This document shows positions 11,748 to 47,334 of a DNA stretch of 64,000 nt, in pieces. The stretch is from an uncultured Verrucomicrobiae bacterium (GTDB taxonomy: Bacteria; Chlamydiota; Chlamydiia; Chlamydiales; JAFEGQ01). The stretch covers positions 330,713 through 394,712 of the forward strand of contig CAVUAA010000002.1 of the NCBI GenBank assembly GCA_963739345.1, written 5' to 3'. The notes below the pieces were generated by a model, which was not told where the DNA came from, did not search any database, and saw only the letters and a list, made by a program, of their open reading frames with translations. The position numbers were made by a program, and so were the translations under genes. Position 1 is the first letter of the stretch; each line of letters begins with the position of its first letter.

Positions 11748-11830
11748 GTGTCCACCGGCTATGCGTGCGGGTTTTTTGTTTAGGGATTTGGCGTTGGTAT
11801 GCTAAGTTTGCGCCTTAAAGAGGTGCGGGT

Positions 11831-12424
11831 TTGGAAGAATATCGGGTTGTTGGCGTTTTTGGAGGGAAGGCGGTTTGCGTTGGAGAGGGGGTTGAGGAGG
11901 TTGAGGTTCGGAAGATGGATGTGGTGGTGGGCGCGGTGGAGGAGGTGTTCGTCAAGGGGATGAGGCTGGGGGTGGGGGCGGAGAAGGAATTGGAGGCGGC
12001 GAGGGATTTCCAGCTCGGGGGCGAGGTGGAGGCGGTTGTTGATCATCAGGTGGTAGCTAGGGACGAGATGGGGGTGCGGTTAAGTGTTTTTTCTGTGCGG
12101 AAAGAGGTGGTTGGGGGCTGTTTGGATTGTGAGCGGTTGAGCTGTGTGCCGGCGGCATTGGCCGAGGTGGGAAAGGCGTTGGGAGGCGAGGGGCGGTATG
12201 GGGTGGTGTGGAAAGATTTTGCGGTGGTTGGGAGAGGGGGTTTGGTGTTGTGGGCAGGGAGAGGGCGGAGGGCTGTGAGGGGGTTGGGAGAAAAGGGGCT
12301 GAAGAGGGTGTTTGGCTGGAGGAGGAGCGCTGGGGCGGGGTGGAATTGGGTGAGTACGGGGTGGCGGTTGGGTTTGCATTGGGGGCGGGGGTTTGGACTT
12401 TCGGCAGGGGGAGTTTGCGTATAG
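11831..12424 (+). CDS. hypothetical soluble protein, first ORF of a coupled operon (possible PilM/GspL-cytoplasmic-domain analogue)
   Basis: G-rich coding strand. TTG start at 11831 (alternative ATG at 11915). The C-terminal third is compositionally odd (G/R/W-rich), so the frame or extent is uncertain. Confidence 0.3.
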   Translation: MEEYRVVGVFGGKAVCVGEGVEEVEVRKMDVVVGAVEEVFVKGMRLGVGAEKELEAARDFQLGGEVEAVVDHQVVARDEMGVRLSVFSVRKEVVGGCLDCERLSCVPAALAEVGKALGGEGRYGVVWKDFAVVGRGGLVLWAGRGRRAVRGLGEKGLKRVFGWRRSAGAGWNWVSTGWRLGLHWGRGFGLSAGGVCV

Positions 12425-12827
12425 GGAGCGGTGGAAGAGGGAGAAGGGGAGGCTGATGGGTTTTGTGGGGGCGTGTGTGGCGGTCTGTTTGGGGGTGGTG
12501 GTCTTGGGGAGTGTGTTGGTGGGGAAGGAGAGGGAGATGATGGGGGTTGCGAAGGGGGAATTGGGGAAGGTGGATGGCTGGGAGTCGTTTGAGCTGTGGC
12601 CAAGGGTTGCAGGGGTGAGCGATGTGATGGCGTGGGTGGGAAGTAGGGTGAAACGGGTGGAGAGCTTTCGGTATCTCTTGGGATCGGATGTGAGAGTGGA
12701 GCTGGTTTTTGAGGCGGAGAGCCCGACGAAGGCGAGAGAGTTTCACGATGAACTGTTGAATTGGGAGGTGACGAGCTGGGGGATGGTGGGTGAAAATATC
12801 GGGTGGTGTTTTCGGTATGATTTCTAA
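12393..12827 (+). CDS. hypothetical bitopic membrane protein (PilN-like architecture)
   Basis: A basic stretch YRERWKREKGRL is followed by TM MGFVGACVAVCLGVVVLGSVLV and a domain of about 100 aa. It overlaps both the upstream and downstream ORFs. Confidence 0.45.
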   Translation: MDFRQGEFAYRERWKREKGRLMGFVGACVAVCLGVVVLGSVLVGKEREMMGVAKGELGKVDGWESFELWPRVAGVSDVMAWVGSRVKRVESFRYLLGSDVRVELVFEAESPTKAREFHDELLNWEVTSWGMVGENIGWCFRYDF

Positions 12828-13389
12828 GCAGCGGATGTTGGTTTATTTGATGGTGGGCTGTTTTGCGGTGGTGGGCTGCGTGGGGTGGTCTGTGGGCGAG
12901 AGGGTGAAGGGGGCGAAGAGGGAGCGGATGGTGGTGGAGCGGATGTTGGGGGCGGCGAGGATAAAGATGGCGCGCCAAGAGGTAAACCGGGCGGTGCGTG
13001 ATGCTTTTGCGGGAGCAGATCACCGGTATGTGGATCGGGAGCTGGAGACGGTGGAGTTGCTTAAGGGAGAGAGGGAGGGGTTGAGGCGCTTGCTGGAGCA
13101 GGAGCCTGGTTTGCCGAGCAAGGAGGTGTTGGGGCGGCTGGAGAAGTTGGAGGGAAACCGGGTGCGGTTTGCTGAGGGGAAGGTGCGGCAAGAGGGGTGT
13201 GTGAGCGAGGTGGAGGAGAAGCTGGCGAAGGGGGTGGAGGTGGACATTGCGGATGTGATGGGGCTGCTGGAGAGGATTGAGGGGGTTGGCGAGGGGAGGC
13301 CGCAGATGGTGGTGACGGAATTCGGGCTTAGGAGGAAGGGGGAGGTGTTTGAAATGGATATGCGGTTTGTGAAGAGGGAATTCGAATGA
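12817..13389 (+). CDS. hypothetical bitopic membrane protein with a coiled coil (PilO/GspM-like architecture)
   Basis: ATG 12817 overlaps the previous stop (12825-12827). TM MLVYLMVGCFAVVGCVGW is followed by a coiled-coil-like segment and a small C-terminal domain. The stop overlaps the next start (ATGA at 13386). Confidence 0.5.
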   Translation: MISKQRMLVYLMVGCFAVVGCVGWSVGERVKGAKRERMVVERMLGAARIKMARQEVNRAVRDAFAGADHRYVDRELETVELLKGEREGLRRLLEQEPGLPSKEVLGRLEKLEGNRVRFAEGKVRQEGCVSEVEEKLAKGVEVDIADVMGLLERIEGVGEGRPQMVVTEFGLRRKGEVFEMDMRFVKREFE

Positions 13390-14558
13390 AGTATCTTTTG
13401 TTGGCTCTGGTGTTAGTGGGATGTGCGCGGGGGGTGAGTGAGCGCGATCTTGTGAAGATCAACATCATCGATCGGAATGGGATGAATGAGACGATTCAGG
13501 CGAAAGACCGCTTGGCGAGGTATCAGGGGGTCGATTTCCTGCGGGCGCAGCCCTATCAGAAGGTGCTGCGAGTGTGCGGACCAAGGGTGGATGGTGCGGT
13601 CCCCTCGTTTGTGACAAGCTACCATGAGAATGGACAGGTGCGGCAGTACCTGGAGGTGGTAGATGGGCGGGCGAGTGGTTGGTATCGAGAGTGGCATCCG
13701 AATGGGGCGCTCAAGTTAGAGGCGTGGGTCGTTGGAGGGGTGGCCGACATCGATGAGCGGGCGCAGGAATCGTATGTGTTTGAGGGGGTAAGTAGAGCGT
13801 GGGATGGAAAGGAAACGCTTGTGGGAGAGATCCCCTATGAAGCGGGTGTGTTGGAAGGGGTGTGTCGTTACTTTAAAGGGGGTGAGCTGGTCCGGTGCGA
13901 GCGGTATGAGAAGGGAGTGTTGGAGGGGGAAGTGATGAGTTTTTGGCCGGGGGGGATGCCGCAGTCAGAGGAGGTCTATGCGAGGGGCTTGCTGGCTGAG
14001 GGGAGATATTTTGATCGGGCGGGTCTCTGTCTTGGCGAGGTGCGCAAGGGACGGGGTGTTCGTGTGGTGTTTGGGGAGGGGCATGCACTTTGGGATGTGG
14101 TGAGGGGAAGTCCGAGGGGGCGGGTGCGGGAGTATGGTGTGCGGGGCGAACTTCATCGTCTCTACCACGTGAAAGGGGGGGTGAAGGAGGGGGAGGAGGT
14201 GGAGTACTGGGAGGAGCCATTTGGACTGGATCCGGTGCAGAAATTGTCGCTTAACTGGCGTGGGGGGGAGATTCAGGGGGTGGTGCGGACCTGGTATGAG
14301 GATGGGCAGCTGGAGAGTCAGCGGGAGATGAGCCACAATAGGCGGAACGGAATGTCGACGGCATGGTATCAAGATGGAAGTTTGATGCTTGTCGAGGAGT
14401 ACCGGGAAGACCGGCTGGTGAAGGGCGAGTATTATGAGAGGGGCGCTTCGCGTCCCGCTTCAGGTGTGAGAGAGGGGGAAGGGATTGCCACTCTCTTTGA
14501 TCCGCAAGGAACCTATTTGGCGCGAGTCAACTATGTGGAGGGAAGTCCAATTGAGTAA
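13386..14558 (+). CDS. MORN-repeat (YwqK-type) lipoprotein
   Basis: Lipobox MKYLLLALVLVGC. Repeated YxENGQ/WYxDG motifs (YHENGQVRQY, WYREWHPNGALK, TWYEDGQLES, AWYQDGSLML). Confidence 0.7.
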   Translation: MKYLLLALVLVGCARGVSERDLVKINIIDRNGMNETIQAKDRLARYQGVDFLRAQPYQKVLRVCGPRVDGAVPSFVTSYHENGQVRQYLEVVDGRASGWYREWHPNGALKLEAWVVGGVADIDERAQESYVFEGVSRAWDGKETLVGEIPYEAGVLEGVCRYFKGGELVRCERYEKGVLEGEVMSFWPGGMPQSEEVYARGLLAEGRYFDRAGLCLGEVRKGRGVRVVFGEGHALWDVVRGSPRGRVREYGVRGELHRLYHVKGGVKEGEEVEYWEEPFGLDPVQKLSLNWRGGEIQGVVRTWYEDGQLESQREMSHNRRNGMSTAWYQDGSLMLVEEYREDRLVKGEYYERGASRPASGVREGEGIATLFDPQGTYLARVNYVEGSPIE

Positions 14559-15057
14559 GGAAAAGATTCGGCAGGAGTTTCGGGAGATTCGGAAGGGGTT
14601 ATCGGAGGAGCGGCGGCGGGGTGCGGCGGAGGCTCTGAGGGGAGAGGTGCTCAGGCTGGTTCCGGAGGGGCTGGTGATGTCGTTTTGGAGTTTGGGGGAT
14701 GAGATTGGGACCGAGTTGTTGAATGAGGCGTTGGGAGAGCGATTGGTGCTCCCGAGGGTTCATGATGGAGGGCTGGAGATGCGGCGCGCCGGTGACCTGG
14801 TGGAGGGACCCTATGGTTTGATGGAACCGTCGGAAGGCTGTGAGCGGGTGGACGAGGTGGGGTGTGTTTTGGTGCCAGGGTTAGCTTTTGATGAGTGGGG
14901 GCACCGGGTGGGCTATGGAATGGGATATTATGATCGCTGTCTAGCTGGGGTGGCTGAGCGGGTGGTGGTGTACGGGGTGGCGTTTAGGGAGCAGCTGGTG
15001 GCCCTTGTGCCGGCGGAGGCGCACGATGTTCCTGTTCACAAAGTTCTAAGTTTCTAA
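14533..15057 (+). CDS. 5-formyltetrahydrofolate cyclo-ligase
   Basis: Motif VPGLAFDEWGHRVGYGMGYYDR. Start taken at ATG 14533; the ORF is open from 14485. Confidence 0.75.
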   Translation: MWREVQLSKEKIRQEFREIRKGLSEERRRGAAEALRGEVLRLVPEGLVMSFWSLGDEIGTELLNEALGERLVLPRVHDGGLEMRRAGDLVEGPYGLMEPSEGCERVDEVGCVLVPGLAFDEWGHRVGYGMGYYDRCLAGVAERVVVYGVAFREQLVALVPAEAHDVPVHKVLSF

Positions 15058-15148
15058 TCACCTGCGCGCAAGTTTTATTAACAAAGTGTGTGTTGAGGAA
15101 GGTGCGGCCGGCTGTGAGGAGCTGGGCGTGCTGTTCGGGGGTGATGGT
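14991..15148. repeat. left copy of the 158-bp direct repeat flanking the phosphoramidate cassette
   Basis: Identical to 21381-21538 except one substitution (15002 c vs 21392 g). It covers the last 67 nt of the cyclo-ligase gene, the spacer, and the 3' end of a GT10-like gene on the opposite strand. Confidence 0.9.
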
Positions 15149-15168
15149 CTTTAGGTAGGGACGATCCG
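15058..15168 (-). pseudogene. orphan 3' fragment of the GT10-like paralogue (duplicate of 21449-21558)
   Basis: The reverse strand encodes ..TPEQHAQLLTAGRTFLNTHFVNKTCAQVIRNLEL, as in ORF 21359..21901. The upstream two-thirds of the gene are missing. Confidence 0.6.
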
Positions 15169-15227
15169 GGTCTAGGTTCGGGTTACCGGGATTGCAGATT
15201 GATAGTAGGTGGGTTAATATTATCGAT

Positions 15228-15725
15228 ATGCAAGACCCTTACCTTTTGTGGATCACAGGTTTGTCAGGGGCGGGTAAAAGCTCGCTGGCCCGGCGCGTCC
15301 GAGACCGTGCTCGGTCGCGTGGAGAGCGTCCCATTCTGCTCGATGGCGATGCGATCCGAGAGGTGTGTGGTGGCGATCTCGGGTATGGGGATGGCGATCG
15401 GCTCAAAAATGCCTATAGGATCGCCCGATTCTCTCATTTAATTGTCGATCAGGGATTCTCGGTCATCTGCGCGACTGTTTCTCTTTATGACGAGATTCAT
15501 GCTTTCAATAGGGAGTCCTTGGCTAACTACCGCGAAGTGTATGTGAGCTGTCCTCTTGCGGTGTTGCGGGGGCGAGATCAGAAGGGGCTCTATTCTGGAG
15601 AAGCCGATTTGGTGGGTATTACGCAGGCGTGCGATTTTCCGAAGAGACCCCACCTGGTGGTGGAGAACGCTTCGGAGGAGCAGCTAGAGGAAAATGTGGA
15701 GCTCATCGATGCCCTTATCTGCTGA
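15228..15725 (+). CDS. APS-kinase-fold P-loop kinase (Cj1415-like; candidate cytidine diphosphoramidate 3'-kinase)
   Basis: GLSGAGKSS Walker A, LLDGD, and RDQKGLY resembling the CysC motif RDPKGLY. About 165 aa from ATG 15228. Confidence 0.7.
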   Translation: MQDPYLLWITGLSGAGKSSLARRVRDRARSRGERPILLDGDAIREVCGGDLGYGDGDRLKNAYRIARFSHLIVDQGFSVICATVSLYDEIHAFNRESLANYREVYVSCPLAVLRGRDQKGLYSGEADLVGITQACDFPKRPHLVVENASEEQLEENVELIDALIC

Positions 15726-18057
15726 AAGCTTAACTTTTGGGACAAAGGCCGATACATTGGCCCGCCTCGAAGGGTGCGTGAAGAAATCGAGAGTATTACC
15801 CCAGGTGGCATTTTCCGTCGCTTCCTACCGGAAGGAACAGGGGAAGCTTCTTTCTAGGGTTCAGGAGAAGTTTGCGAAGGGCAAGGTGATCGTCCGTTCG
15901 TCGGCGATAGGAGAGGATTCGGCAACCTCTTCAATGGCTGGGCAGTTCACCTCTGTGGCGGGCCTTGGGACCGATTCGGAGGAGCTGGCGGCGGCGATTG
16001 ACCGGGTGATTCGCTCCTATGGGGAGGGGGAGGAGCACCAGGTACTGGTTCAGCCGATGATCGGCCAGATCAAGCGGTGCGGGGTCGTCATGACGGCCGA
16101 CATGGAGACGCTCTCTCCCTACTATTTCATCGACGCCGATCTTTCGGGGCGCCACGATGTGGTGACAGGGGGGAGCGGGGGGGAGAGGGTCTCCTACGTC
16201 CACTACAAGAGATCAGAGCTGGAGCCGTCGTTGAGATGGGTGAGAGAGCTGATCGAGGCGTGCCGCGAATGCGAGGTCCTATTTGAGAATGAGGCGCTCG
16301 ACATTGAGTTTGCATTTGACTCGGAGGATCGACTCTACCTCCTGCAGGTCCGCCCAATTGTCCGTCGGCTGGTTCCGTTGATCTCCTGTGAAAGACTCGA
16401 TGATGCCCTTTCTAAGGTGGCAAGTAAGGTCGAGAAGATTTGTGGGCCTCACCCGGAGCTGCTGGGCGAATCGGGGATGCTAGGCGTCATGCCCGACTGG
16501 AATCCGGCTGAGATCATCGGTCTAAAGCCTCGCCCTTTGGCCCTGACGCTCTACCAAGAGCTGGTCACGAATCAGGTGTGGGCTTACCAGCGGGACAACT
16601 ATGGTTATCGCTCCTTGCGCTCACATCCGTTGCTGATCTCCCTGTTGGGTGTCCCCTATATCGATGTGCGGGTCTCTTTCAACTCGTTCGTCCCCGCCTC
16701 CCTCGGTGACCCGATCGCGGAAAAGTTGGTCGATATCTATCTCAAGCGACTAAGGGCCTATCCGGAGAACCACGACAAGGTGGAGTTTGAGATCGTCAGC
16801 AGCTGTTACACGCTCGATCTTCCTGAACGGATGGAGGCCTTACGAGAAGAGGGTTTAAGCGCGGCGGAGACGGACGAGATTTCCCGCTCTCTTTTGGCTT
16901 TGACGCGGAGAATCCTCTGTCCGAGGAGTGGTCTCTGTCGAAGCGATCTCGAGAAGGTGGAGGGGCTAGAGGAGCTCCACAACCGGGTGATGACCTCTTC
17001 CCTTCATCCGATCGAAAAGATCTATTGGCTTGTCGAGCACTGCAAACGGCATGGGACGCTCCCATTTGCAGGGGTGGCTCGCGCTGCCTTTGTCGCCACG
17101 CAGTTTCTCGACTCCCTGGTCACCTCGGATTTGCTTAATCCAACCGAGAGGTCTCAGTTTCTCCGTAGTCTCTCAACAGTCTCTTCCGAGCTGACCCGTG
17201 ATCTTGCCTGGATCAAGAGCGAGGGGGGGAAGGAGCGCTTTTTATTGCGCTACGGTCACCTTCGGCCTGGCACCTATGACCTCCTCTCGTATCGGTATGA
17301 CGAGGCGTTTGAGAGCTATTTTCCAGAAGGGGTAACAGCCGGTGAGGAGAGCGCGCCGTTTGTGTTGCCCGATGAGAGAATGGAGGCGATTTCGATCGAG
17401 CTCCGCCGCCACCAACTGGGGCTCGATGCGAGCGCCCTATTTGCCTTCATGCAGATGGCTATCGTGGGAAGGGAACGGGCGAAATTTCTATTCACCAGGA
17501 CACTCTCTGACGCGATGCAGCTGATCCTTCAGCTGGGGGAGCGGGTGGGGCTTAGGCGCGAGGAGATGGCCTATCTCAACATTGGATCGGTCCTCTCCCT
17601 CTATCACACTCTCGACGCCCGTGATCTCAAGGAGCATTTCCTCCACGAAATCGAGCGCAACAAAGAGATGTATGCCTACACGCAGGCGGTTCACTTGCCG
17701 CTGCTGATCGGCAAGCCACAAGAGGTCTACACATTTGCTAGCTTCTCAGAAGAGCCCACCTATGTGACGCTCAAGCGGATCAGCGCCGAACCGGTGGTGG
17801 TCGATGAGGAGGCAAGTCTCGCTGGAAAAATCGCGTGCATCCGCTCGGCCGATCCTGGTTATGACTACCTCTTCGCTCAAGGGATTTCGGGTCTCGTGAC
17901 GGCCTATGGGGGGGCCAACTCTCACATGGCGATCCGATGCGCAGAGTTGGGAATACCCGCTGTGATTGGAGCGGGGGAGGTCAACTTCACCAAGTGGAGT
18001 GGAGCGGGGCTTCTGGAGATCGATGCAGCAAACAAAACGTGTGCAGTGATCCGATGA
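15694..18057 (+). CDS. PEP-utilising-type enzyme with a C-terminal phosphohistidine domain (Cj1418-like; candidate L-glutamine kinase)
   Basis: 787 codons (alternative ATG at 15709). The swivel-domain motif GGANSHMAIRCAELGIPAVIGAG lies about 40 aa from the C-terminus, leaving no room for a PEP/pyruvate TIM-barrel. The start overlaps the upstream stop. Confidence 0.7.
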   Translation: MWSSSMPLSAESLTFGTKADTLARLEGCVKKSRVLPQVAFSVASYRKEQGKLLSRVQEKFAKGKVIVRSSAIGEDSATSSMAGQFTSVAGLGTDSEELAAAIDRVIRSYGEGEEHQVLVQPMIGQIKRCGVVMTADMETLSPYYFIDADLSGRHDVVTGGSGGERVSYVHYKRSELEPSLRWVRELIEACRECEVLFENEALDIEFAFDSEDRLYLLQVRPIVRRLVPLISCERLDDALSKVASKVEKICGPHPELLGESGMLGVMPDWNPAEIIGLKPRPLALTLYQELVTNQVWAYQRDNYGYRSLRSHPLLISLLGVPYIDVRVSFNSFVPASLGDPIAEKLVDIYLKRLRAYPENHDKVEFEIVSSCYTLDLPERMEALREEGLSAAETDEISRSLLALTRRILCPRSGLCRSDLEKVEGLEELHNRVMTSSLHPIEKIYWLVEHCKRHGTLPFAGVARAAFVATQFLDSLVTSDLLNPTERSQFLRSLSTVSSELTRDLAWIKSEGGKERFLLRYGHLRPGTYDLLSYRYDEAFESYFPEGVTAGEESAPFVLPDERMEAISIELRRHQLGLDASALFAFMQMAIVGRERAKFLFTRTLSDAMQLILQLGERVGLRREEMAYLNIGSVLSLYHTLDARDLKEHFLHEIERNKEMYAYTQAVHLPLLIGKPQEVYTFASFSEEPTYVTLKRISAEPVVVDEEASLAGKIACIRSADPGYDYLFAQGISGLVTAYGGANSHMAIRCAELGIPAVIGAGEVNFTKWSGAGLLEIDAANKTCAVIR

Positions 18058-18635
18058 AACAGATTCTTGTGACAGGCCGCTTGACGTGTGATGATCAGAC
18101 CGGGGAGGTGCGCGACACTCTCGATTCCAAGTGGACACCGTTTCTGCAGCAGGCGGGGCTTTTGCCCATCCTGGTGCCCCACACAGCCGATCTCGACACA
18201 TTTTTGGCTCACCTGAGCTACGATGGATTATTGTTGACGGGGGGAAATGATCTCGGGCTCTTTTCGAATTGTTCTCTTTCAAAGGCAAGAGATGCATTTG
18301 AGCTGGACCTGCTCGCTCGGGTTGAGATGCCAGTTCTTGGCGTCTGTCGTGGGATGCAGTTACTTGGCCAAAGGTATGGGGCAACTCTGCAGGAGGTCGA
18401 TGGGCATGTGGCCGCCCGTCACCTGGTTGGGGGGCGAGAGGTTAACTCTTACCATCGGTACGCGATGACATCGGCGGGCAAGCTGACGGTTTGTGGGCGC
18501 TCTCCCGATGGGGTGATTGAGCACATCGCTCATCCCACAAAACCAATTGTAGGCATCATGTGGCATCCGGAAAGAGAGAGCCCTTTTTGCCAAGAAGATC
18601 TTTCTCTATTTCGCAGACACTTTGGAGGGGCGTGA
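18054..18635 (+). CDS. class I glutamine amidotransferase / peptidase C26-like hydrolase (Cj1417-like)
   Basis: ATGA overlap with the upstream gene. Nucleophile elbow GVCRGMQLL; MWHPE His-Glu motif. Confidence 0.7.
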   Translation: MKQILVTGRLTCDDQTGEVRDTLDSKWTPFLQQAGLLPILVPHTADLDTFLAHLSYDGLLLTGGNDLGLFSNCSLSKARDAFELDLLARVEMPVLGVCRGMQLLGQRYGATLQEVDGHVAARHLVGGREVNSYHRYAMTSAGKLTVCGRSPDGVIEHIAHPTKPIVGIMWHPERESPFCQEDLSLFRRHFGGA

Positions 18636-19354
18636 TGAGAGCGATCATTTTGGCTGCTGGCACAGGGACGAGACTAGGCTCCCTCACAGCGGACCGTCCG
18701 AAGTGCATGGTAGAGTTGCAGGGGGTGCCGCTGATTGATCGGACGCTCGCGGTGCTACGAGCCGCTGGTATTGATGACGTAATTGTCATCACGGGCTACC
18801 GCGACGACTGCTTGCGAGATCATCTCAAAGGGCAGGGGGTGAGGTTTTGTCATAACGGCGACTACGCCTCCACGAACATGGTGGCAAGTCTCCTGACTGC
18901 TCGCGAGTTTTTTGACCAGGAGTCGCTCATCTCCTATGCCGATATCGTCTATACGCCCGCCGTTGTCAAGGCACTGATCCGCGAGAGAGCACCGCTTGCC
19001 CTCACCTACGACACCGACTGGCACACCTTGTGGTCGATGCGGATGGAAGATCCGCTTTTGGACGCAGAGACGTTCAAAACGGATGCGGATGGATATGTTG
19101 AGGTGGTTGGGGGAAAGCCCCGTTCTCTTAGTGACATTCAGGGGCAATACATGGGGCTCATTCGGGCGAATCCTATCGGCTTTGAGTCGCTTGTTGCGAC
19201 CTATGAGAGGTTGGGTCGTCCTCCCAAACTGCAGATGACCGAGCTCTTGCAAGCGGTGACGGCTCCGATCAAGGGTATTGCAGTGTCAGGGGGTTGGGTG
19301 GAGGTCGACACGCCCGAAGACCTGCTAGCCTACAAGGATCTTAGCTGGCTTTAG
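18635..19354 (+). CDS. nucleotidyltransferase (Cj1416-like; candidate cytidylyltransferase)
   Basis: TGATG overlap with the upstream gene. N-terminal MRAIILAAGTGTRLG signature of NTP-transferases. Confidence 0.7.
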   Translation: MRAIILAAGTGTRLGSLTADRPKCMVELQGVPLIDRTLAVLRAAGIDDVIVITGYRDDCLRDHLKGQGVRFCHNGDYASTNMVASLLTAREFFDQESLISYADIVYTPAVVKALIRERAPLALTYDTDWHTLWSMRMEDPLLDAETFKTDADGYVEVVGGKPRSLSDIQGQYMGLIRANPIGFESLVATYERLGRPPKLQMTELLQAVTAPIKGIAVSGGWVEVDTPEDLLAYKDLSWL

Positions 19355-20526
19355 AGATAGTCCGTGGACATCCACCGGTCGCGTGTTTTGCGATGCCTTC
19401 GGCGGGCTCTTGAGTTTGCGATGGCTTCTATCCGCTCCCGTTCCGTTTCGGCTGTGACAAGCGAGTAGGACTTCTCTAACGCCTGTTTGTAGAGTCGCCG
19501 TTTCCTTAGAACCTGAAAGACGCGTGTCAGCGTCTCACACACACCGTAGCTCTCCGTCTCATCCAGGAGTTGCCGAAGCAGCCGGTAGTCGACAAACCGG
19601 CCGTATGTAGCTGCCTGAATGCGGGCCATTGGACGGTCGTGGATCGTTGCACTCCATTCGGCTAAGGTCTGCCCTACTTGGTTGTTGAAGGCCCGCTCTC
19701 CCCATCTTGAGAGAGCCTTGGCAAGTCGCGCCTGGTAGGGGAGAGTTTGCGTTGCGCCAGCCTCCACGTCGTAGCCGAACTTTTGGGCAACAATGGCTGG
19801 CCAGCCGTGAAGAGCCTCCAGGTCTTCTGCGGAGTACAGCATCGCCCCTCACCCACCTGCCCTTTGCGCATGAGCTCGTGAGTTCCCAGCCATTTGACGG
19901 TGGCCGCACGGATGTTGGCGAAAGAGGAGGCCTCAATGGCCGCCTCTATCTCTCCAAGAGGCCTCTCTTCTCCCAAAAACCCTAACGCGCGCAGCACAGC
20001 TGGGAGTGGGTTGGATTTGAGCTCTTCGAAGCTGATTGTCAGTAGTTTCCCCGGTCCGAAGGCATTGGGGATGAGGCTATAGTAGTTCGCCCACTCTTCT
20101 GCCGGGGCATGATGGAGTTGGTGGCTGTAGTGAGGATCGTTTATATAAAGCGGCTCTGTGAGAAATTGGCTGAATGAGAGATGTCCGCCCAACTCTGTGG
20201 TGGCAGCGAATGAAGAACATCACGAATATCCCGGACTACCAGGATCCCCCGTCCTTTGATCTCTTCGCGGTTTGGGAGGAAGTGGGTCGAGGAGCAACGT
20301 GGGGCAGTCGCCAAAGTGGTAGACGGTTTGGTCTTGCAATCTTGGAAATCGGCCGGCAAGCAGCTTCCGCTCCCCCTCATCGATCGTCCACGAGCCATCG
20401 CCATTATTCTTCCAAAAGCATCAAAGTCTCCACGGTAGATGGGAATGCCTAACTCGAAGAGAATGTTTGCGAGGATCGACTCCCGGCGTGCGGGAAAGCG
20501 TAGATCCCGATCGACTCAGCCGCCAT
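19351..20526 (-). pseudogene. sulfotransferase-fold gene interrupted by at least three frameshifts
   Basis: MAAESIGIYAFPHAGSR (PKSGTT-like 5'-PSB position) / ILANILFELG...GILVVRDIRDVLHS / GHLSFSQF...LLTISFEELKSNPLPAVLRALGFLG...ELMRKGQVGEG / MLYSAEDLEALHGW... These lie in codon phases 0, 1, 2, 0. ATG 20526 overlaps the methyltransferase stop. Confidence 0.6.
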
Positions 20527-21250
20527 GGCGGGCGACCCAGATGCGTGTGGTGTAAGGAACCCCCACCTCTGCATCAGGGATAAGCGAGTGAATCTCATCA
20601 CAGATCGTGCTGAAAGCCTCTCCTGCCTGACGGGCCAGCGTCTCGTGTGATCGCCAGGCGGTGACAATCCGCTCTTTGGTCATGGGGACCACAAACGTAC
20701 TCTCCACCTTCTGCGAACTTTCGAAGAGGCCCGATGCTTCAATCACAGCGGTTGGGTCCTGGCGCCTCTTTCCGTAAGAGTAATCGGCAATTTTGGACTG
20801 GATCAGCTCCTCGATCGCCCTTTGCAGCGGGTCGTTTAAGTCTCGGTGATTCCACATGCAGGCAAAGTACCCACCTGGAATAAGTAACCGTGCGGCCTCC
20901 TTAAGTGCTAGGGCCTGATCCACCACGTTGAATGAGGAGCCGAAAAAGACTCCTGCAAACTGATCACTTTGAAGTCCCGTCTCCTCGCCAGAGGCCTTTT
21001 GCCACCGAACATCGAGTCCAGCACTATTTTTGATCCCAAAGTCGCGCATCGCATCGTTGGGCTCTACTGCTTTGACCCTCAGTCCGTATTGGGCGAGGGG
21101 GCCAGAGAGCTTCCCCGTGCCAGCTCCCACATCGGCCACGAGGTCCCCCCTGCTCAGGCCCATCATTTCAAAGCAGCGCGTCAGCGCCTCTTTTGAATAG
21201 TCAGCCCTTTGATCGTATGAGCTCGCACGCTCAGTATAGTCCCACTTCAT
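20516..21250 (-). CDS. class I SAM-dependent methyltransferase
   Basis: Motif I DLVADVGAGTGKLSGPLA, followed by VKAVEPNDAMRDFG. 244 codons. Confidence 0.8.
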   Translation of the reverse strand: MKWDYTERASSYDQRADYSKEALTRCFEMMGLSRGDLVADVGAGTGKLSGPLAQYGLRVKAVEPNDAMRDFGIKNSAGLDVRWQKASGEETGLQSDQFAGVFFGSSFNVVDQALALKEAARLLIPGGYFACMWNHRDLNDPLQRAIEELIQSKIADYSYGKRRQDPTAVIEASGLFESSQKVESTFVVPMTKERIVTAWRSHETLARQAGEAFSTICDEIHSLIPDAEVGVPYTTRIWVARHGG

Positions 21251-21358
21251 CCTAACCTCCCGTAGATTCTAGTTGGCCTGGAACCATACCATACTCATAG
21301 TCTAAGCTGCCACCCAATAATCTAGATTGAGATCATTGGGTGGCAACTATCGGGTGGA

Positions 21359-21901
21359 CTATGATCGCTGTTGAGTGGGGGCAGCTGGTGGGCCTTGTGC
21401 CGGCGGAGGCGCACGATGTTCCTGTTCACAAAGTTCTAAGTTTCTAATCACCTGCGCGCAAGTTTTATTAACAAAGTGTGTGTTGAGGAAGGTGCGGCCG
21501 GCTGTGAGGAGCTGGGCGTGCTGTTCGGGGGTGATGGTGTCTAGGTAGGCGGTGAGGTCGGTGTCTGTGGGGAAGCGGGAAGGGTCGATGTAGCAGGTGG
21601 GGGGGATAGCGGGGGTGCCGCGGTAGATGGGGACGGTGCCGCGGGCAATGGTCTCTAGGAGTTTATGGCAGTCGGATACTTGAGCGAAGCGGGGGGCGGC
21701 GACTCTGTTTTTATTGGCGAGGAGGCGGAAGTGGTCGCTAAGTTTGACGACGACGGCCCCTTCGGGAATGCGTTTGAGCGAGGTGCGGCGGAGGTCGTAG
21801 CCTAGGTCTCGGAGCTTTCGTTGGAGCAACTTCCAGACAGGGTGTCTGGTTTGCGGGGAGTAGTAGGCGATACGAGAGTGGGAGATGCCGAATAGCCGCA
21901 A
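21359..21901 (-). CDS. short, motif-degenerate GT10-like paralogue (possible pseudogene)
   Basis: Aligns with the C-terminal half of the neighbouring GT10 gene (TVPIYRGTPAIPPTCYIDPSRFPT vs SVPIYWGAPNITEYVPADCFIDRTQFPS), but the YENxxxxxYVTEK motif is lost. TTG start; only 180 codons. Confidence 0.45.
   Translation of the reverse strand: MRLFGISHSRIAYYSPQTRHPVWKLLQRKLRDLGYDLRRTSLKRIPEGAVVVKLSDHFRLLANKNRVAAPRFAQVSDCHKLLETIARGTVPIYRGTPAIPPTCYIDPSRFPTDTDLTAYLDTITPEQHAQLLTAGRTFLNTHFVNKTCAQVIRNLELCEQEHRAPPPAQGPPAAPTQQRS
21381..21538. repeat. right copy of the 158-bp direct repeat flanking the phosphoramidate cassette
   Basis: See 14991-15148. The right copy carries a decayed remnant of the cyclo-ligase 3' end (21359-21448, about 41 bp shorter than the intact gene). 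Confidence 0.9.
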
Positions 21902-21960: not shown

Positions 21961-22902
21961 TTAGCCAGCTTTTTTCAGATCGGCGGTCAATGTCTCTTGG
22001 ATGCCAGCTGTCATCTGATTGATAAAGCTCTCCTCTGAAAATAGCTTTGCTTTTTCGGAGGCTAGATAGCGCTTCGCGGCGGTCAGATAGGGGGCCGGGT
22101 CGAGGGTGAGGAGGTGTTCGTAGAGGGCTTGATCCGAGGGGAACTGAGTGCGGTCGATGAAGCAATCAGCCGGTACGTACTCGGTGATATTAGGTGCGCC
22201 CCAGTAGATGGGGACCGAGCCAGCGCAGAAGCAGTCGAGAATCTTTTCGGTGACGTAGCCGGGCATGCTGTGGCCATTCTCATAGGCGATAGTAAAGCGG
22301 AAGTTAGAGAGAGTAGCCAGCTTGTCGTCGACAGGGCCGCCATAGTTACGATAGCCCAGATGCTCCCAGCCAGTTCCGTAAAAGGTGAAATCAGCCTCAG
22401 GTTGATCTTCGAAAAACTCGATGAGGCGGCGGCGGTGGGTGTAGAGTTCTTGTGGATGGGAAGAGGCCTTGTTGCCCACAACCATGGTGAGAAAGCGATG
22501 CTGGGAGTTTGGAGAGCGGCTTTTGAGTGGGTTAGGGAATAGAAGCTTTTGAAATTTGGGCCCGTGGAGGTCATCGCGGAGGGTGTAGATGCGGGAAAAG
22601 CGGTCGTAACAGGCGGCGGTGTGCTGGTAGGGGATGTATGTGGGGGGCTCGGTCTGAATGAGGTGGTGGGTGGCTGGAGAGCGGTTGCGGAGGAAGTCGA
22701 GCGTCTCAGCAGTGGGCATGATGTCATTGAAGATGACGAGGGGGGCGTCTTGAGGGATTCTCCTAAGGGGAGAGCATTTGAGGCGGTAGGGCTTTACCTG
22801 GTCACGGATGGTGGCCCAAGAGGACCATTTTTGGAAAAAAGGCTCTCGGTGGGTGTGACCGGGGAGAAGGGTGATGTAGGCGGTGGGGGGCTGCTTGAAC
22901 AT
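21961..22902 (-). CDS. GT10-family alpha-1,3/4-fucosyltransferase-like glycosyltransferase
   Basis: Start at ATG 22902; the longer ORF would overlap recA. Signature FRFTIAYENGHSMPGYVTEKILDCFCAGSVPIYWGAP closely resembles the H. pylori FutA-type motif FENxxxxxYVTEKxxDxxxxxxIPIYWG. Confidence 0.75.
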   Translation of the reverse strand: MFKQPPTAYITLLPGHTHREPFFQKWSSWATIRDQVKPYRLKCSPLRRIPQDAPLVIFNDIMPTAETLDFLRNRSPATHHLIQTEPPTYIPYQHTAACYDRFSRIYTLRDDLHGPKFQKLLFPNPLKSRSPNSQHRFLTMVVGNKASSHPQELYTHRRRLIEFFEDQPEADFTFYGTGWEHLGYRNYGGPVDDKLATLSNFRFTIAYENGHSMPGYVTEKILDCFCAGSVPIYWGAPNITEYVPADCFIDRTQFPSDQALYEHLLTLDPAPYLTAAKRYLASEKAKLFSEESFINQMTAGIQETLTADLKKAG

Positions 22903-22957: not shown

Positions 22958-24016
22958 ATGATGGGAAGAGAAAGCGAGTCAGCTCGAAAAAAGGCGTTAG
23001 AAGCGGCAGTTGCACATATCCATAAACAGTTTGGTGAAGGGGCGATCATGAGCCTCGGCAAGCAGTCCGCCGGCCGCGAGGTAGAGGTGATCTCGACCGG
23101 AGCAATCTCTCTCGACATTGCATTGGGAATTGGCGGAGTGCCACGTGGAAGGATTGTAGAGATTTATGGGCCTGAGTCGTCGGGAAAGTCGACGCTGGCA
23201 ACCCACATTGTGGCCAATGCGCAGAAGAATGGGGGCTTGGCGGCCTACATCGATGCGGAGCACGCCCTCGATCCGAGTTATGCGACGAAAATCGGGGTGA
23301 ATATCGATGACCTTTTGATCTCACAGCCCGACAGCGGAGAGGAGGCGCTCCAGATCACGGAGGTGCTCGCCCGCTCGAATGCGGTCGATGTGATTGTGAT
23401 CGACTCGGTGGCAGCACTGGTTCCCAAGAGTGAGCTAGATGGGGAAATTGGTGACTCGTTCGTCGGTCTTCACGCGCGGCTGATGTCGCAGGCGCTTCGG
23501 AAGCTGACCGCAGCGGTTTCGAGGAGCAACACCTGTGTGATCTTCATCAACCAGATCCGTGAGAAAATTGGGGTGATGTTTGGGAGTCCAGAGACCACGA
23601 CGGGTGGCCGGGCGCTTAAGTTCTACTCGTCGATCCGTCTCGACATTCGCCGGATTGGGAGCATCAAGGGAACGACAGCCGATGCCAATATCTTGGGAAA
23701 CAGGGTGAAGGTGAAGGTGGCCAAGAACAAGATGGCTCCTCCGTTTAGGATCGCCGAGTTTGATATTCTGTTCAACGAAGGAATCTCAAAAGCGGGATCG
23801 CTGATCGACATGGCCGTTGAGTTTGAGGTGATCGATAAGAAAGGGGCGTGGTTCAGCTACAAAGGGGGACGACTCGGCCAAGGGCGCGAAGCGGTCCGTG
23901 AGGAGCTGCGCAACAACCAGGAGCTCTTCGATCAGATTGATGCGGAAGTTCGTGCGAAGAATCCACTTCTGGCCACGAAAGAGACGCCGAAACAAGAGGC
24001 TCCAGCTCCGGCGTGA
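22958..24016 (+). CDS. recA: recombinase RecA
   Basis: [22 protein letters not shown], Walker [47 protein letters not shown]. Confidence 0.97.
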
Positions 24017-24792
24017 TCATCGTCAAAATCCATGGGGGGCTGGGCAACCAGCTCTTCCAGTATGCATTTGGGCGTGCGCGCTCCATCCGGGAGGAGAAAA
24101 AACTCCTCCTCGACATTCGCTGGTATCGCAAAGGTGATCGGGTCCTTGGACTCGATCATTTTTGCATCACCGGCGGCCGCCGTTCGTGGTGGCACTGGAG
24201 AGAAGAAGAGCCCCTTTCCGGCTACTGGCAAAGCGAAAACTATTTCGCCGATCAGGCCGATTTGATTCGGCAGGAGCTACAACCAAAAGTGGCAGTTACC
24301 GGCTGCGAGCCGATGGAGCGGCGTGAGTCGGTCAGTCTTCATGTGAGGCGGGGCGACTATGTCCAGCACAAGACGCGTGCGCCGGTTCATGGCGTCAACC
24401 TCGATCACTACTACAAGCGTGCTGTGGACCTGATGCAGGAGCGGTTGGCCAATCCCCACTTCTTTGTCTTTAGCGATGAGCCGGAGTGGGTGAGAGAGAA
24501 TCTATCTCTTGATGCGCCCATGACTGTGATGGAGGCGGGGGCGCCACATGAGGATCTCATTCGAATGAGCAGCTGCCGGCATCACATCATGGCAAACAGC
24601 TCATTTAGTTGGTGGGGGGCGTGGCTTAATCCGGGCAGTGAGAAGACTGTCACAGCGCCCGATCAGTGGTTCAATGTGCCAGGGCACGACACGAGCGATC
24701 TCCTTCCAGAAGGCTGGATCAAATTGAGCTGTAGCGAGGAAAAGCGCGAATCAGCTTGTCACTCGCCTGTTGCTCAGCTAGGCGCACTCTAA
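24013..24792 (+). CDS. GT11-family alpha-1,2-fucosyltransferase
   Basis: GTG start overlapping the recA stop (GTGA). Motifs [34 protein letters not shown]. Confidence 0.8.
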
Positions 24793-25456
24793 AGTCGCTG
24801 ATCGGATTGGCGTCATTATAGATATAGAGCACTTCGGGGATGAACCGGAAGCGGGGGCCGGCCATCTCGGCGATGGGGAACATGGTGGCCAGATCGCCTG
24901 CTGTGCGAAAATAGTCTCCTGTACGGGGATCGCGCAGGTCTTTGTCCTCAATCTGCCTCCAGAGTAGGTACTTGTAGGTGCGGAGGTGGGAGAAAAGCCA
25001 CGATTTCTTTCTGTAGTGGAGCTTGCGGGTGGTTTTGGACTTGGGAAGGCGGCAGTGGCCGATGGTGCCGGCCCGGTAGTTGAGATATTGGCCGTAGGTG
25101 AAGAGGGCGTCTGAGGAGGAGTAGACGTCGTCTAGTTTTTGCAATACCCACTCGTTGGCGAGCCAGTCATCGCCATCAACCACAATGATCACATCGTCGT
25201 CGGTGCACTTGTGAGCGGCGGTGCCGTCAATGAGGCCGGCGAGGGGGCCGCCGTTTTCTTCGCGGGTGTGGTGGATCCAATTGTTGCGATCGCAGAAATC
25301 TTTGATGACTGCTTTGTGTTGATCATCCGTTGAGGCGTCGTCGACGACGGCAACGTCGAAGTGGGGGTAGTCCTGCGACTCGATAGAGCGGAGGGTCCGC
25401 TCTATCCATGGGTAGCTGTTGTAGGAGGGGACGACGATTTTGAAGTGGGTGGTCAT
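24719..25456 (-). CDS. GT2-family glycosyltransferase
   Basis: Start at ATG 25456 (ATGA overlap with the upstream gene). IVVPSYNSYPWIERTLRSIESQDYPHFDVAVVDDASTD, VVDGDDW. Confidence 0.8.
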   Translation of the reverse strand: MTTHFKIVVPSYNSYPWIERTLRSIESQDYPHFDVAVVDDASTDDQHKAVIKDFCDRNNWIHHTREENGGPLAGLIDGTAAHKCTDDDVIIVVDGDDWLANEWVLQKLDDVYSSSDALFTYGQYLNYRAGTIGHCRLPKSKTTRKLHYRKKSWLFSHLRTYKYLLWRQIEDKDLRDPRTGDYFRTAGDLATMFPIAEMAGPRFRFIPEVLYIYNDANPISDFRVRLAEQQASDKLIRAFPRYSSI

Positions 25457-44169: not shown

Positions 44170-44330
44170 TGTTTTTATTCCTATGTAGCGGCAACTGGGG
44201 CCGATTCGTATCAACTTAAATGTTGCTTACGCAGTTGATGTGTAGGCGAGCGGGGAAATGATGTCAAGAATGTTGTGTGTTCAGGGGATCTTCATCAACA
44301 AGTAAGTAGCGCGAAGTGCTCGTCACTTAA

Positions 44331-44380
44331 AATCAGCCGGTATGTCGTACAATGCGCGACATACGGGCTGATTTTTTTTG
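44331..44380 (-). terminator. bidirectional-type intrinsic terminator after the last T2SS operon gene
   Basis: Stem of about 17 bp, aatcagccggtatgtcg / cgacatacgggctgatt (one mismatch), flanked by A-rich sequence on one side and T8 on the other. It lies directly after the stop at 44381. Confidence 0.55.
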
Positions 44381-47322: not shown

Positions 47323-47334
47323 GGGGTTCTTCTC

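Follow-up and report, generated by a model that had tools for sequence, protein, structure and literature searches.

A Campylobacter-type phosphoramidate gene module on a likely acquired island of a PVC bacterium, with a frameshifted sulfotransferase-fold gene

In Campylobacter jejuni, the MeOPN locus lies inside the capsule locus, with Cj1415–Cj1418 assigned to donor synthesis and Cj1421 and Cj1422 to transfer (PMC11800397, PMC3907429). Cj1419 and Cj1420 are methyltransferases without demonstrated function even in C. jejuni (PMC11800397). The genes run in one direction, in the order methyltransferase, methyltransferase, glutamine kinase, C26 hydrolase, nucleotidyltransferase and small kinase. 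In C. jejuni 81-176 a MeOPN transferase gene is far from the biosynthesis genes, and some C. coli strains retain orthologues of cj1416–1418 without a transferase, MeOPN being undetected in the C. coli isolates examined (PMC3907429). Outside Campylobacter, Cj1416–1418-like genes are reported in a MeOPN-like cluster of archaeal Borg elements; its assignment came from structure prediction, one of its features is a PEP-mutase fusion, and its description leaves the small kinase unmentioned (bioRxiv 10.1101/2024.11.05.622173). PAPS-dependent sulfation, with its CysC APS kinase, sulfotransferase and CysQ pAp phosphatase, follows a parallel logic.

We analysed a 64-kb window (the whole stretch of DNA, within a 469-kb contig) from a bacterium of the PVC group that is probably an environmental chlamydia. 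We consider it likely that the window carries a horizontally acquired 6.2-kb island with a complete Campylobacter-type phosphoramidate (MeOPN-type) module, in which donor synthesis is kept and the transfer step encoded by the island itself has been inactivated (Table 1). As in the C. jejuni locus, the genes follow one another closely, with stop codons overlapping start codons, full-length homologs of Cj1415, Cj1416, Cj1417, Cj1418 and Cj1419 retain their catalytic residues, and a candidate transferase gene is adjacent. Unlike that locus, the module is carried by an island with repeats at both ends instead of lying within a capsule locus, has one methyltransferase instead of two, and is arranged as small kinase, glutamine kinase, C26 hydrolase and nucleotidyltransferase, with the methyltransferase and transferase genes convergent on the other strand. 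In addition, it has a sulfotransferase-fold pseudogene in place of a DUF2972/NF058596 transferase, and kps capsule export genes were not found near the module.

Table 1. Features of the island and its surroundings (window coordinates)
Feature	Position	Strand	Basis
Left copy of 173-bp direct repeat, left island junction	14987..15159		repeat search
Segment read as inserted, 6217 bp, entire phosphoramidate module	15160..21376		blastn against relative L082, repeats, GC skew
Cj1415-type small P-loop kinase, predicted cytidine diphosphoramidate 3'-kinase, 165 aa	15228..15725	+	homology
Cj1418-type L-glutamine kinase homolog, 787 aa	15694..18057	+	homology; swivel histidine His744
Cj1417-type class I amidotransferase/C26 hydrolase, predicted gamma-glutamyl-CDP-amidate hydrolase, 193 aa	18054..18635	+	homology
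Cj1416-type nucleotidyltransferase, predicted CTP:phosphoglutamine cytidylyltransferase, 239 aa	18635..19354	+	homology
Sulfotransferase-fold pseudogene of the c31 family (intact length about 390 aa), candidate phosphoramidate transferase	19351..20525	-	three-frame translation and profiles
SAM-dependent methyltransferase, Cj1419/Cj1420 type, 244 aa	20516..21250	-	homology
Right copy of 173-bp direct repeat, right island junction	21377..21549		repeat search
GT10 fucosyltransferase-like gene, ancestral glycan locus, outside island	21988..22887	-	Pfam
GT11 gene, beyond recA	24013..24792		Pfam
GT2 gene, beyond recA	24722..25450		Pfam

An earlier note had described four genes at 15228–19354 as a phosphoramidate-donor cassette in a chlamydia-like genome; that affiliation is plausible, and all the coordinates, product sizes and motifs it gave are present in the sequence. 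Specifically, the first gene starts at ATG 15228, ATG codons at 15694 and 15709 precede its TGA at 15723–25 (the database entry for the large kinase uses ATG 15709, giving 782 aa), ATGA at 18054–57 and TGATG at 18633–37 form the next junctions, and the last stop is at 19352–54. The small kinase carries GLSGAGKSS at residue 11 and LLDGD at residue 37, the large kinase carries the swivel motif GGANSHMAIRCAELGIPAV at residues 739–757 of 787, leaving 30 residues after it, the hydrolase carries GVCRGMQ at residue 96 and MWHPE at residue 169, and the nucleotidyltransferase begins at residue 1 with MRAIILAAGTGTRLG. Pfam assigns APS_kinase (2.8e-30), PPDK_N with PEP-utilizers, Peptidase_C26/GATase and NTP_transf_3, respectively. 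The limits of 15228 and 19354 proved too narrow: the functional unit extends to 21250 and includes a fifth pathway gene that the note lacked, the methyltransferase. The note likewise did not mention the insertion or the frameshifted sulfotransferase-fold gene.

Judged by sequence, the four genes are homologs of Cj1415, Cj1418, Cj1417 and Cj1416, in that order, with end-to-end identities of 39% (over 164 aa), 44% (772 aa), 29% (181 aa, with GxCRGxQ and MWHxE aligned) and 37% (248 aa, full length). The small kinase scores 151.7 bits on NCBIfam NF004041 (cutoff 127; C. jejuni protein 290.6), and the large kinase matches NF004508 over its full length with 931 bits (cutoff 501; C. jejuni 1173). The top model of the hydrolase, NF045546, gives 114 bits, under its cutoff of 250, and the weak top model of the nucleotidyltransferase is the same one as that of the C. 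jejuni protein; for all four, the top NCBIfam model agrees with that of the C. jejuni counterpart. The catalytic residues of all four are retained, including the hydrolase triad Cys98, His171 and Glu173, and all 26 aligned members of the large-kinase family have His744. Family-conserved columns are kept at 93–100% in all five intact genes (18/19 in the small kinase, 160/168 in the large kinase, 26/28 in the hydrolase, 36/36 in the nucleotidyltransferase and 35/36 in the methyltransferase). For the methyltransferase, identity is 41% with the C. jejuni protein at the Cj1419 position (over 247 aa), 33% with the one at the Cj1420 position, and 45% with the in-cassette methyltransferase of Geomonas.

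The large kinase shares its ATP-grasp and swivelling phospho-histidine domains with rifampin phosphotransferase (RPH) and the PEP synthase/PPDK superfamily. In an AF2 model of the 787-aa protein (pLDDT 83.5), these domains flank a central, entirely helical region of 430 residues. The best PDB folds for the model are RPH structures (5hv1/5fbs; E 1e-19), at an identity of only 14–16% and with a different central helical substrate domain. Consistent with the earlier note, Pfam, the AF2 model and the PDB fold search found no PEP/pyruvate-binding TIM barrel in the protein, which is thus neither a PEP synthase nor a PPDK. PEP synthase and PPDK models reach only 15–58 bits against cutoffs of 456–1063, on the swivel domain alone.

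The gene set recurs beside large-kinase genes at 81 loci spread over many phyla, with the C26 hydrolase in 77/81, the nucleotidyltransferase in 75/81, the small kinase in 68/81 and the methyltransferase in 57/81, and the gene order is also recurrent; the adjacency is far beyond chance. Cassettes of, for example, Geomonas sp. RF6 (L001), Sulfuricurvum (L012), Thermodesulfovibrionales (L003) and Planctomycetota contain the same five gene families, and the order of the four donor-synthesis genes in two Planctomycetota loci (L026 and L081) is identical to that of the window. A Methanoperedens-labelled locus (L074) is also among the cassette loci found in the scan. The earlier note was not aware of a description of this chemistry in the lineage, and the implied rarity does not hold: databases list more than 7400 members of the family, the cassette occurs in at least 590 species-representative genomes, other PVC bacteria included, and parts of it are already named in NCBI and JGI annotation.

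Three lines of evidence, namely absence from relatives, direct repeats and a break in GC skew, point to a recent, horizontal insertion of the module. The cassette is absent at the corresponding site of L083 and of the closest relative, L082 (RecA 87% identical), whose positions 1–2866 match window 12356–15159 before the blastn match restarts at window 21406. The two repeat copies are 98% identical at a spacing of 6390, the left one spans the 3' terminus of the gene for 5-formyltetrahydrofolate cyclo-ligase (14485–15057) and the downstream spacer, and a three-way alignment sets both against a single-copy stretch in L082. GC skew lies between about 0 and 0.2 within the segment, against 0.45–0.7 upstream and 0.34–0.39 downstream. 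The difference from L082 could also reflect loss of the segment there instead of its gain in the window. The best matches to the cassette are only 40–54% identical and scattered over unrelated phyla, so that no donor lineage can be named. The proposed island has the folate cyclo-ligase gene on one side and, on the other, a glycan locus with GT10, recA, GT11 and GT2, in agreement with the glycosyltransferase neighbourhood claimed earlier; the glycan-locus genes have L082 counterparts that are 69–70% identical and in the same order, with the island missing.

The start codon of the sulfotransferase-fold gene (ATG 20525–20523) overlaps the stop of the Cj1419-like methyltransferase gene, in a translationally coupled arrangement. 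Three-frame translation reveals that the reading switches frame four to five times. On Pfam Sulfotransfer_1, the longest single ORF scores 29.5 bits and the stitched protein, with the match running through the joins, 39.8 bits. Collinear segments in alternating frames are matched by the c31 HMM, and hhalign aligns the pseudogene to this cassette-linked family over 234 columns spanning all joins (probability 98.3%, E 2.7e-14). At L003, L011, L012, L013 and L068 a c31 gene lies directly next to the cassette; in the window, the gene is frameshifted. Because its family abuts the cassette in other phyla, and given the PAPS-like donor, the gene likely once encoded a phosphoramidate transferase. In Campylobacterales loci, DUF2972/NF058596 MeOPN transferases hold its place.

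By homology to the characterised C. jejuni enzymes, the glutamine kinase would use ATP to convert L-Gln into L-glutamine phosphate. The nucleotidyltransferase, whose closest solved relative is the CTP:phosphocholine cytidylyltransferase LicC, would join this product to CTP to give CDP-L-glutamine, and the C26 hydrolase would remove glutamate to leave cytidine diphosphoramidate. The small kinase would then add a 3'-phosphate, yielding 3'-phospho-cytidine-5'-diphosphoramidate, which resembles PAPS, the donor of sulfate. The sulfotransferase-fold protein would formerly have passed phosphoramidate to an acceptor. The cassette shares with PAPS sulfation an APS-kinase-fold 3'-kinase and a sulfotransferase-fold neighbour; at other loci it also shares phosphatases of the CysQ-like or PHP type. 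Unlike PAPS sulfation, in which sulfate leaves adenosine, it would transfer phosphoramidate from a cytidine nucleotide, and its small kinase belongs to the Cj1415 subfamily, below the cutoff of the CysC equivalog TIGR00455, as is C. jejuni Cj1415 itself.

We weighed whether the four genes could be ordinary housekeeping genes, for CysC, PEP synthase/PPDK, a PuuD-like amidohydrolase and a sugar-1-phosphate nucleotidyltransferase, that are neighbours by chance. The generic Pfam names and the closest solved relatives (APS kinases, PEP synthase fragments, GMP synthase/PuuD and LicC) would fit, but the sub-cutoff scores on canonical models, the missing PEP/pyruvate domain, the full-length alignments to Cj1415–1418, the conserved synteny and the 9 loci in which small kinase and glutamine kinase are naturally fused refute this reading, to which we give almost no credence. 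The four proteins are counterparts of Cj1415–Cj1418, not of CysC, PpsA, PuuD or RmlA. Homologs of Cj1415–1418 might instead make a different activated phospho-amide, from another amide substrate or nucleotide, as the 29–44% identities and the sub-cutoff hydrolase would allow; phosphoramidates without an O-methyl group occur in Xanthomonas and Shewanella LPS (PMC3907429). We regard this as improbable, since the five proteins retain nearly all conserved columns common to Campylobacterales members and the gene set does not vary between phyla.

The transfer step invites two further readings. The sulfotransferase-fold gene might be an ordinary PAPS-dependent sulfotransferase, the non-Campylobacter transferase being another protein such as the PF04464 TagF-like proteins encoded next to the cassette at 6 loci, that of Geomonas among them. 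Profiles of c31 and of a second family, c12, match genuine PDB sulfotransferases at 1e-10 to 1e-14 (c31 at 1e-10), and homology to the proven Campylobacter MeOPN transferases (Cj1421/1422) was undetectable (hhalign probability 1.5% and 14%). However, this rare fold is strongly enriched near the cassette (within 1.5 kb in 29/81 loci, mostly abutting and usually co-directional), the small kinase and its fusions are of the Cj1415 type, the phosphatases accompany the cassette, and the donor has the same 3'-phosphate handle as PAPS (PMC11800397), which makes an ordinary sulfotransferase rather unlikely. The module might also be fully functional and decorate a surface glycan with (methyl) phosphoramidate, if the frameshifts are assembly errors, as they could be in principle, or if another part of the genome encodes a working transferase. 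Five of six genes are intact with their conserved residues, glycosyltransferase genes adjoin the island, the window covers only part of the contig, and strain 81-176 offers a precedent for a remote transferase. Against this stand four to five frame changes within 1.17 kb and none in the adjacent 4.9 kb with five genes; only one join is near a G5 run, nothing like the long poly-G tracts of Campylobacter; the window contains no other sulfotransferase-fold, DUF2972 or PF04464 gene; and C. coli provides the opposite precedent. Full function is possible, with the balance clearly against it.

Taken together, our analysis suggests that donor synthesis is probably intact in this organism. The surface glycan that the earlier note proposed as the likely target was overstated, because the window's sole transferase candidate is a pseudogene with multiple frameshifts, and a working pathway to it cannot be accepted on that basis; transfer to glycan is doubtful unless another transferase is encoded outside the window. 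With the island's own transfer step apparently dead, the modification would be either absent or dependent on such a transferase. The Campylobacter-type phosphoramidate gene set itself is widespread among bacteria.

A PDB sequence search with the four window proteins retrieved generic relatives only and no detectable Cj1415-Cj1418 entries, so the reference C. jejuni locus (L037, C. jejuni GP013) was taken from the species-representative genomes that we scanned. In order and size its ORFs are as expected: two methyltransferases are followed by ORFs of 779, 200, 253 and 170 aa, and these by ORFs of the size of KpsC and KpsS. In pairwise BLASTP comparisons with the C. jejuni counterparts, the glutamine-kinase-type protein (GlnK, Cj1418 type) is 44% identical over 772 aa, the nucleotidyltransferase (NT, Cj1416 type) 37% over 248 aa (full length), the small kinase (KIN, Cj1415 type) 39% over 164 aa, and the hydrolase (C26, Cj1417 type) 29% over 181 aa, with the GxCRGxQ and MWHxE motifs and the Cys/His/Glu triad aligned.

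NCBIfam scores were calibrated on the genuine C. jejuni proteins. GlnK scores 931 bits with NF004508 (cutoff 501; C. jejuni protein 1173 bits), and KIN scores 151.7 bits with NF004041 (cutoff 127; Cj1415 290.6 bits). NT has no curated specific NCBIfam model, its C. jejuni counterpart matching generic models only, and its assignment is supported by synteny and by conserved columns, defined as those at least 90% conserved within the family, of which it keeps 36 of 36. With these results and the full-length BLASTP alignments, KIN, GlnK and NT are established as the counterparts of Cj1415, Cj1418 and Cj1416, as the earlier note had proposed. On its assignment of C26 to the Cj1417 type the evidence is divided: the aligned triad, 26 of 28 conserved columns and synteny in 77 of 81 loci speak for it, but the score with the best model, NF045546 (gamma-glutamyl-CDP-amidate hydrolase), is 114 bits, short of the cutoff of 250 bits (C. 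jejuni protein 331 bits). Overall, the five intact window proteins, which include a methyltransferase, keep 93–100% of family-conserved columns, within the range of other members.

GlnK can be ruled out as a PEP synthase or PPDK, since it lacks the TIM-barrel domain, scores below the cutoffs of the corresponding models and ends 30 aa past the His motif. Specifically, Pfam assigns PPDK_N and PEP-utilizers domains (the latter at residues 711–779 of 787) and no PF02896 (PEP/pyruvate domain) match, and the PEP synthase and PPDK models reach 15–58 bits against cutoffs of 456–1063. The swivel histidine, H744, is invariant in the family, and 30 aa of the 787-aa protein remain after its motif. In an AlphaFold (AF2) model based on 26 family members (pLDDT 83.5), an ATP-grasp region at the N-terminus is followed by an all-helical middle part and, at the C-terminus, by the swivel domain; the best PDB matches found by Foldseek are rifampin phosphotransferases (E 1e-19), with PPDK a partial match at rank 30. 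Pfam, the AF2 model and Foldseek thus agree that GlnK has ATP-grasp and swivel His domains and no PEP/pyruvate barrel, and the last two point to the architecture of rifampin phosphotransferases. KIN is likewise ruled out as a CysC adenylyl-sulfate kinase, because it scores 115.5 bits with the TIGR00455 apsK/CysC equivalog (cutoff 138.7), and genuine Cj1415 also falls below that cutoff. Reciprocal best matches to canonical sulfate enzymes, and to a PEP synthase or PPDK whose barrel is intact, were the contrary outcome named in the earlier note; this outcome did not arise, and the seemingly exotic pathway of the window becomes a well-supported annotation.

The four co-directional ORFs lie exactly where they had been placed, and every motif quoted for them is found in the window sequence. 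The reported overlaps are also present: ATG 15694/15709 precede TGA 15723-25, ATGA lies at 18054-57 and TGATG at 18633-37. All three junctions (15694-15725, 18054-57 and 18633-37) thus have overlapping or abutting stop and start codons, and the four genes are probably co-transcribed. The genes are likewise clustered in the 81 loci. KIN has an alternative start at TTG 15192; the C. jejuni alignment, however, starts at ATG. Pfam identifies KIN as APS_kinase, C26 as Peptidase_C26/GATase and NT as NTP_transf_3. Promoter-like and terminator-like sites within the island, the window-specific segment that carries these genes, are no more frequent than expected by chance, and the window yielded no Rfam or tRNA matches.

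Coordinates of the cassette, its flanking repeats and other features of the window
Feature	Position	Strand	Remarks
KIN, small kinase (gene 1)	15228-15725	+	165 aa
GlnK, large kinase (gene 2)	15694-18057	+	787 aa; database version from ATG 15709
C26, hydrolase (gene 3)	18054-18635	+	193 aa
NT, nucleotidyltransferase (gene 4)	18635-19354	+	239 aa
Putative sulfotransferase-fold pseudogene	19351-20525	-	ATG 20525-20523 overlaps the methyltransferase stop; stop 19351-53
MT, Cj1419/Cj1420-type methyltransferase	20516-21250	-	244 aa
173-bp direct repeat	14987-15159 and 21377-21549		copies 98% identical; edges of the window-specific segment
Type II secretion cluster	43105-53604 region		GspD secretin 49955-52183; GspE 48489-49952; GspF 47335-48741; T2SS-J-like 45247-45852
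Legionella-OMP-family porin genes (two)	43105-44214 and 62275-63432
OprB-family porin gene	4937-6448

Downstream of NT, on the opposite strand, lies a methyltransferase gene (MT) that the earlier note had overlooked. Its product is 41% identical to the Cj1419-position protein (247 aa, full length), 33% to the Cj1420-position protein (252 aa) and 45% to the in-cassette methyltransferase of Geomonas. The function of Cj1419 and Cj1420 is unproven even in C. jejuni, where knockouts have no phenotype (PMC11800397).

Between NT and MT, the minus strand matches the sulfotransferase fold in a reading frame that is broken four to five times before its stop; a PF00685 fold test there gave a domain match and no intact frame. 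With Pfam Sulfotransfer_1, the longest single fragment scores 29.5 bits and the stitched product 39.8 bits, at profile positions 79–234 and across three joins. A database search with the stitched product returned no homolog at E ≤ 0.001, and profile comparison was used to assign the family: hhalign against the alignment of c31, a sulfotransferase-fold family found near cassettes, gave a probability of 98.3% (E 2.7e-14, 234 columns) and covered all five joins, and the c31 HMM matched collinear segments in alternating frames. Phase variation is rejected as the source of the frameshifts, since no G run is longer than 5 nt and the frame changes several times independently. A G5 run lies near only one of the joins, and the adjacent 4.9 kb, holding five genes, contains no frameshift, which argues for a true pseudogene over phase variation or a generalised assembly error. 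We read the region as a true pseudogene of the sulfotransferase fold.

The closest relative found, L082, is a JGI metagenome contig whose RecA is 87% identical to that of the window. It shares the backbone of the window at this site (MORN-repeat protein, 5-formyl-THF cyclo-ligase, GT10, RecA, GT11, GT2, polyprenyl synthase, hexapeptide transferase, MutL and M24 peptidase), and the phosphoramidate cassette is absent from the backbone site. In a DNA alignment, L082 1-2866 corresponds to window 12356-15159 and the match resumes at window 21406; the 173-bp stretch that is repeated at the edges of the window-specific segment is single-copy in L082. GC skew is 0.45–0.7 upstream of the island, about 0–0.2 inside it and 0.34–0.39 downstream. 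In the more distant relative L083 (RecA 76%), the cyclo-ligase gene lies directly beside recA. Given two relatives without the cassette, the repeats and the break in GC skew, insertion of the module into the window's lineage is the simplest reading of the alignment; a deletion in L082 would also account for the absence from that contig, and is a formal alternative that we consider less simple. With insertion as the preferred reading, the source is obscured by the best matches of the five intact proteins, which are only 40–54% identical and scattered over unrelated phyla, so that no donor lineage can be named. The comparison with L082 indicates that GT10, GT11 and GT2, the neighbours of the island, belong to the ancestral gene complement of this site. 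On the insertion reading, the window cassette is recently acquired and partly decayed: a Campylobacter-type donor module reached this organism by horizontal transfer, beside a glycan locus of fucosyltransferase-like type, and the putative transfer gene next to it has since decayed.

Further differences from L082 and irregularities occur around the island. Window 28615-30008, where mutL and the M24 peptidase gene are separated by a DUF4143/AAA_14 ATPase gene (28869-30005), and window 32283-34261, which contains a 626-aa ORF without a family match (32332-34212, minus strand), have no L082 counterpart, and several small insertions specific to the strain seem to be present in this genome. Beyond the right repeat lies a GT10 fucosyltransferase-like remnant (21479-21664, minus strand), 41% identical to residues 216–278 of the L082 GT10; its DNA is conserved in L082 (about 2800-2990), so the remnant is older than the insertion. 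L082 has two tandem GT2 genes (6036-7504; 244 and 245 aa) that are 69% and 81% identical to the single window GT2 (24722-25450), a difference due to tandem duplication or deletion inside the glycan locus. About 3.5 kb upstream of the island, a DDE transposase (DDE_Tnp_1/DDE_Tnp_1_3; 10628-11612, minus strand) is split into two overlapping ORFs, which would be explained by a programmed frameshift or by decay of an IS element. The extreme plus-strand GC skew of 11800-15200 (0.45–0.72) produces a spurious long proline-rich antisense ORF at 12046-13191; the real genes there, for which L082 has homologs, lie on the plus strand.

The description of the host as chlamydia-like is plausible, although RecA labels conflict. 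Among the 120 top relatives of the window RecA, a single protein bears an organism label, Verrucomicrobia, and is 79% identical to it, and a second label, Parachlamydiaceae, belongs to the cluster mate of a match 77% identical to it; the two labelled proteins are 80% identical to each other, so one label or both are unreliable. L083 shares local synteny with the window and encodes a 722-aa GreA, NqrA and paired Tyr/Trp permeases, which we take to be typical of Chlamydiota, and this tips the balance towards Chlamydiota over Verrucomicrobia. The window glucose-6-phosphate isomerase scores above the NF010695 cutoff. A G+C content of 55–60% is unusually high compared with described chlamydiae. Membership of the host in the PVC group is safe.

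MeOPN (O-methyl phosphoramidate) sugars have been stated to be known from Campylobacter only (PMC6429109) and the glutamine kinase has been called C. jejuni-specific (PMC9561416); nevertheless, our scan of species-representative genomes returned at least 600 stretches, 590 of them confirmed, placing the cassette in at least 590 genomes. Carriers among the matches listed include Myxococcota, Desulfobacterota, Bacteroidota, Firmicutes, Planctomycetota, Omnitrophota, Cyanobacteria-related lineages and others. The GlnK family has more than 7400 members in the protein database at E ≤ 1e-10, some already named 'glutamine kinase' by JGI. Unmethylated phosphoramidates have been described in Xanthomonas and Shewanella LPS (PMC3907429), and a similar cluster in Borg elements in a 2024 preprint (bioRxiv 10.1101/2024.11.05.622173). 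An archaeal-labelled contig in our set, from a Candidatus Methanoperedens MAG (L074), carries a GlnK-C26-NT cassette, which fits the published Borg/Methanoperedens MeOPN-like genes. The top-ranked full-text literature matches linked neither phosphoramidates with Chlamydiae nor MeOPN with the sulfotransferase fold. The window cassette is a known type of system in a lineage for which it had not been described; genome databases are rich in it, and NCBIfam and JGI annotate parts of it.

Gene content was counted in 81 loci, the 80 best plus that of Geomonas sp. RF6. GlnK is accompanied by C26 in 77, NT in 75, KIN in 68 and MT in 57, several loci ending at contig edges. The commonest order is KIN-MT-GlnK-C26-NT, and the window order, KIN-GlnK-C26-NT, is that of both Planctomycetota loci. 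KIN is fused to the N-terminus of GlnK in a single ORF of 973–1019 aa in nine loci (L045, L049, L051, L057, L063, L065, L075, L079 and L080), independent evidence that this 'APS kinase' belongs to the phosphoramidate pathway.

We clustered all ORFs in the 81 loci and assigned the neighbours that recur to families. Two sulfotransferase-fold families, c12 (Sulfotransfer_3) and c31 (Sulfotransfer_1), recur by the cassette, and their profiles match solved sulfotransferases at 1e-10 to 1e-14. In 29 of 81 loci, HMM searches detect a sulfotransferase-fold ORF no more than 1.5 kb from the cassette and usually abutting it. In six Campylobacterales loci, its place is taken by DUF2972 proteins, which lie beside the cassette in Campylobacter and Helicobacter and which NCBIfam (NF058596) names 'O-methyl phosphoramidate transferase'; PF04464 TagF-like proteins occur in six of the 81 loci. 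Profile-profile comparison of c31 and c12 with Campylobacter DUF2972, the genetically proven Cj1421/Cj1422 family, was negative or marginal and not significant, and the DUF2972 profile had no PDB match; we do not propose that these families share an origin. Neither tblastn, with queries from C. jejuni and Helicobacter, nor a six-frame HMM search found the Cj1421/Cj1422 family (DUF2972, NF058596) in the window, and, apart from the pseudogene, the 64 kb yielded no sulfotransferase-fold, DUF2972 or PF04464 transferase candidate.

The donor made by Cj1415-Cj1418 is CDP-phosphoramidate 3'-phosphate (PMC11800397), a structural analogue of PAPS. From this PAPS-like donor and the recurrent sulfotransferase-fold neighbours, we infer that, in cassettes outside Campylobacter, phosphoramidate is transferred by the sulfotransferase-fold proteins, and that the now broken copy in the window once encoded such a transferase. 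In its full form, the proposal is that c31 and c12 enzymes transfer phosphoramidate outside Campylobacterales, with 3'-phospho-CDP-amidate as the PAPS mimic and the window as a recently imported, decaying copy; we advance it tentatively, with slightly less than even confidence. Phosphatase genes also occur in or beside the cassette: inositol-monophosphatase/CysQ-like genes (c16) in 11 loci (L008, L014, L015, L020, L027, L044, L047, L055, L059, L064 and L077) and PHP-domain genes (c30) in six (L029, L033, L042, L046, L048 and L053), with none of either type in the window's island. Their products are candidates for hydrolysing cytidine 3',5'-bisphosphate after transfer, as CysQ does pAp.

Donor-pathway activities are known for the C. 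jejuni proteins only (PMC11800397). By homology to these characterised enzymes, GlnK would convert L-Gln and ATP to L-glutamine phosphate through phospho-His744, NT would combine this product with CTP to give CDP-L-glutamine, C26 would release glutamate and cytidine diphosphoramidate, and KIN would phosphorylate the donor at the 3' position. MT may carry out an O-methylation at some stage, and a sulfotransferase-fold enzyme, inactive in the window, would presumably transfer the group to a putative acceptor. The neighbouring GT10, GT11 and GT2 genes suggest that the module may originally have acted on a fucosylated surface glycan, in line with the earlier proposal of a surface-glycan target, but the island's own putative transferase gene is broken.

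The pairing of the cassette with sulfotransferase-fold genes is more worth following than its presence in the window, as it provides a candidate, open to testing, for a transfer step that awaits characterisation. If the proposal is true, the ATP spent on the 3'-phosphate would be explained as the price of a handle for the 3'-phosphate-binding motif of sulfotransferases, and the CysQ-like and PHP phosphatases near the cassette would be explained by the clearing of cytidine 3',5'-bisphosphate. P-N glycan decoration would then be widespread in bacteria and no speciality of Campylobacter.
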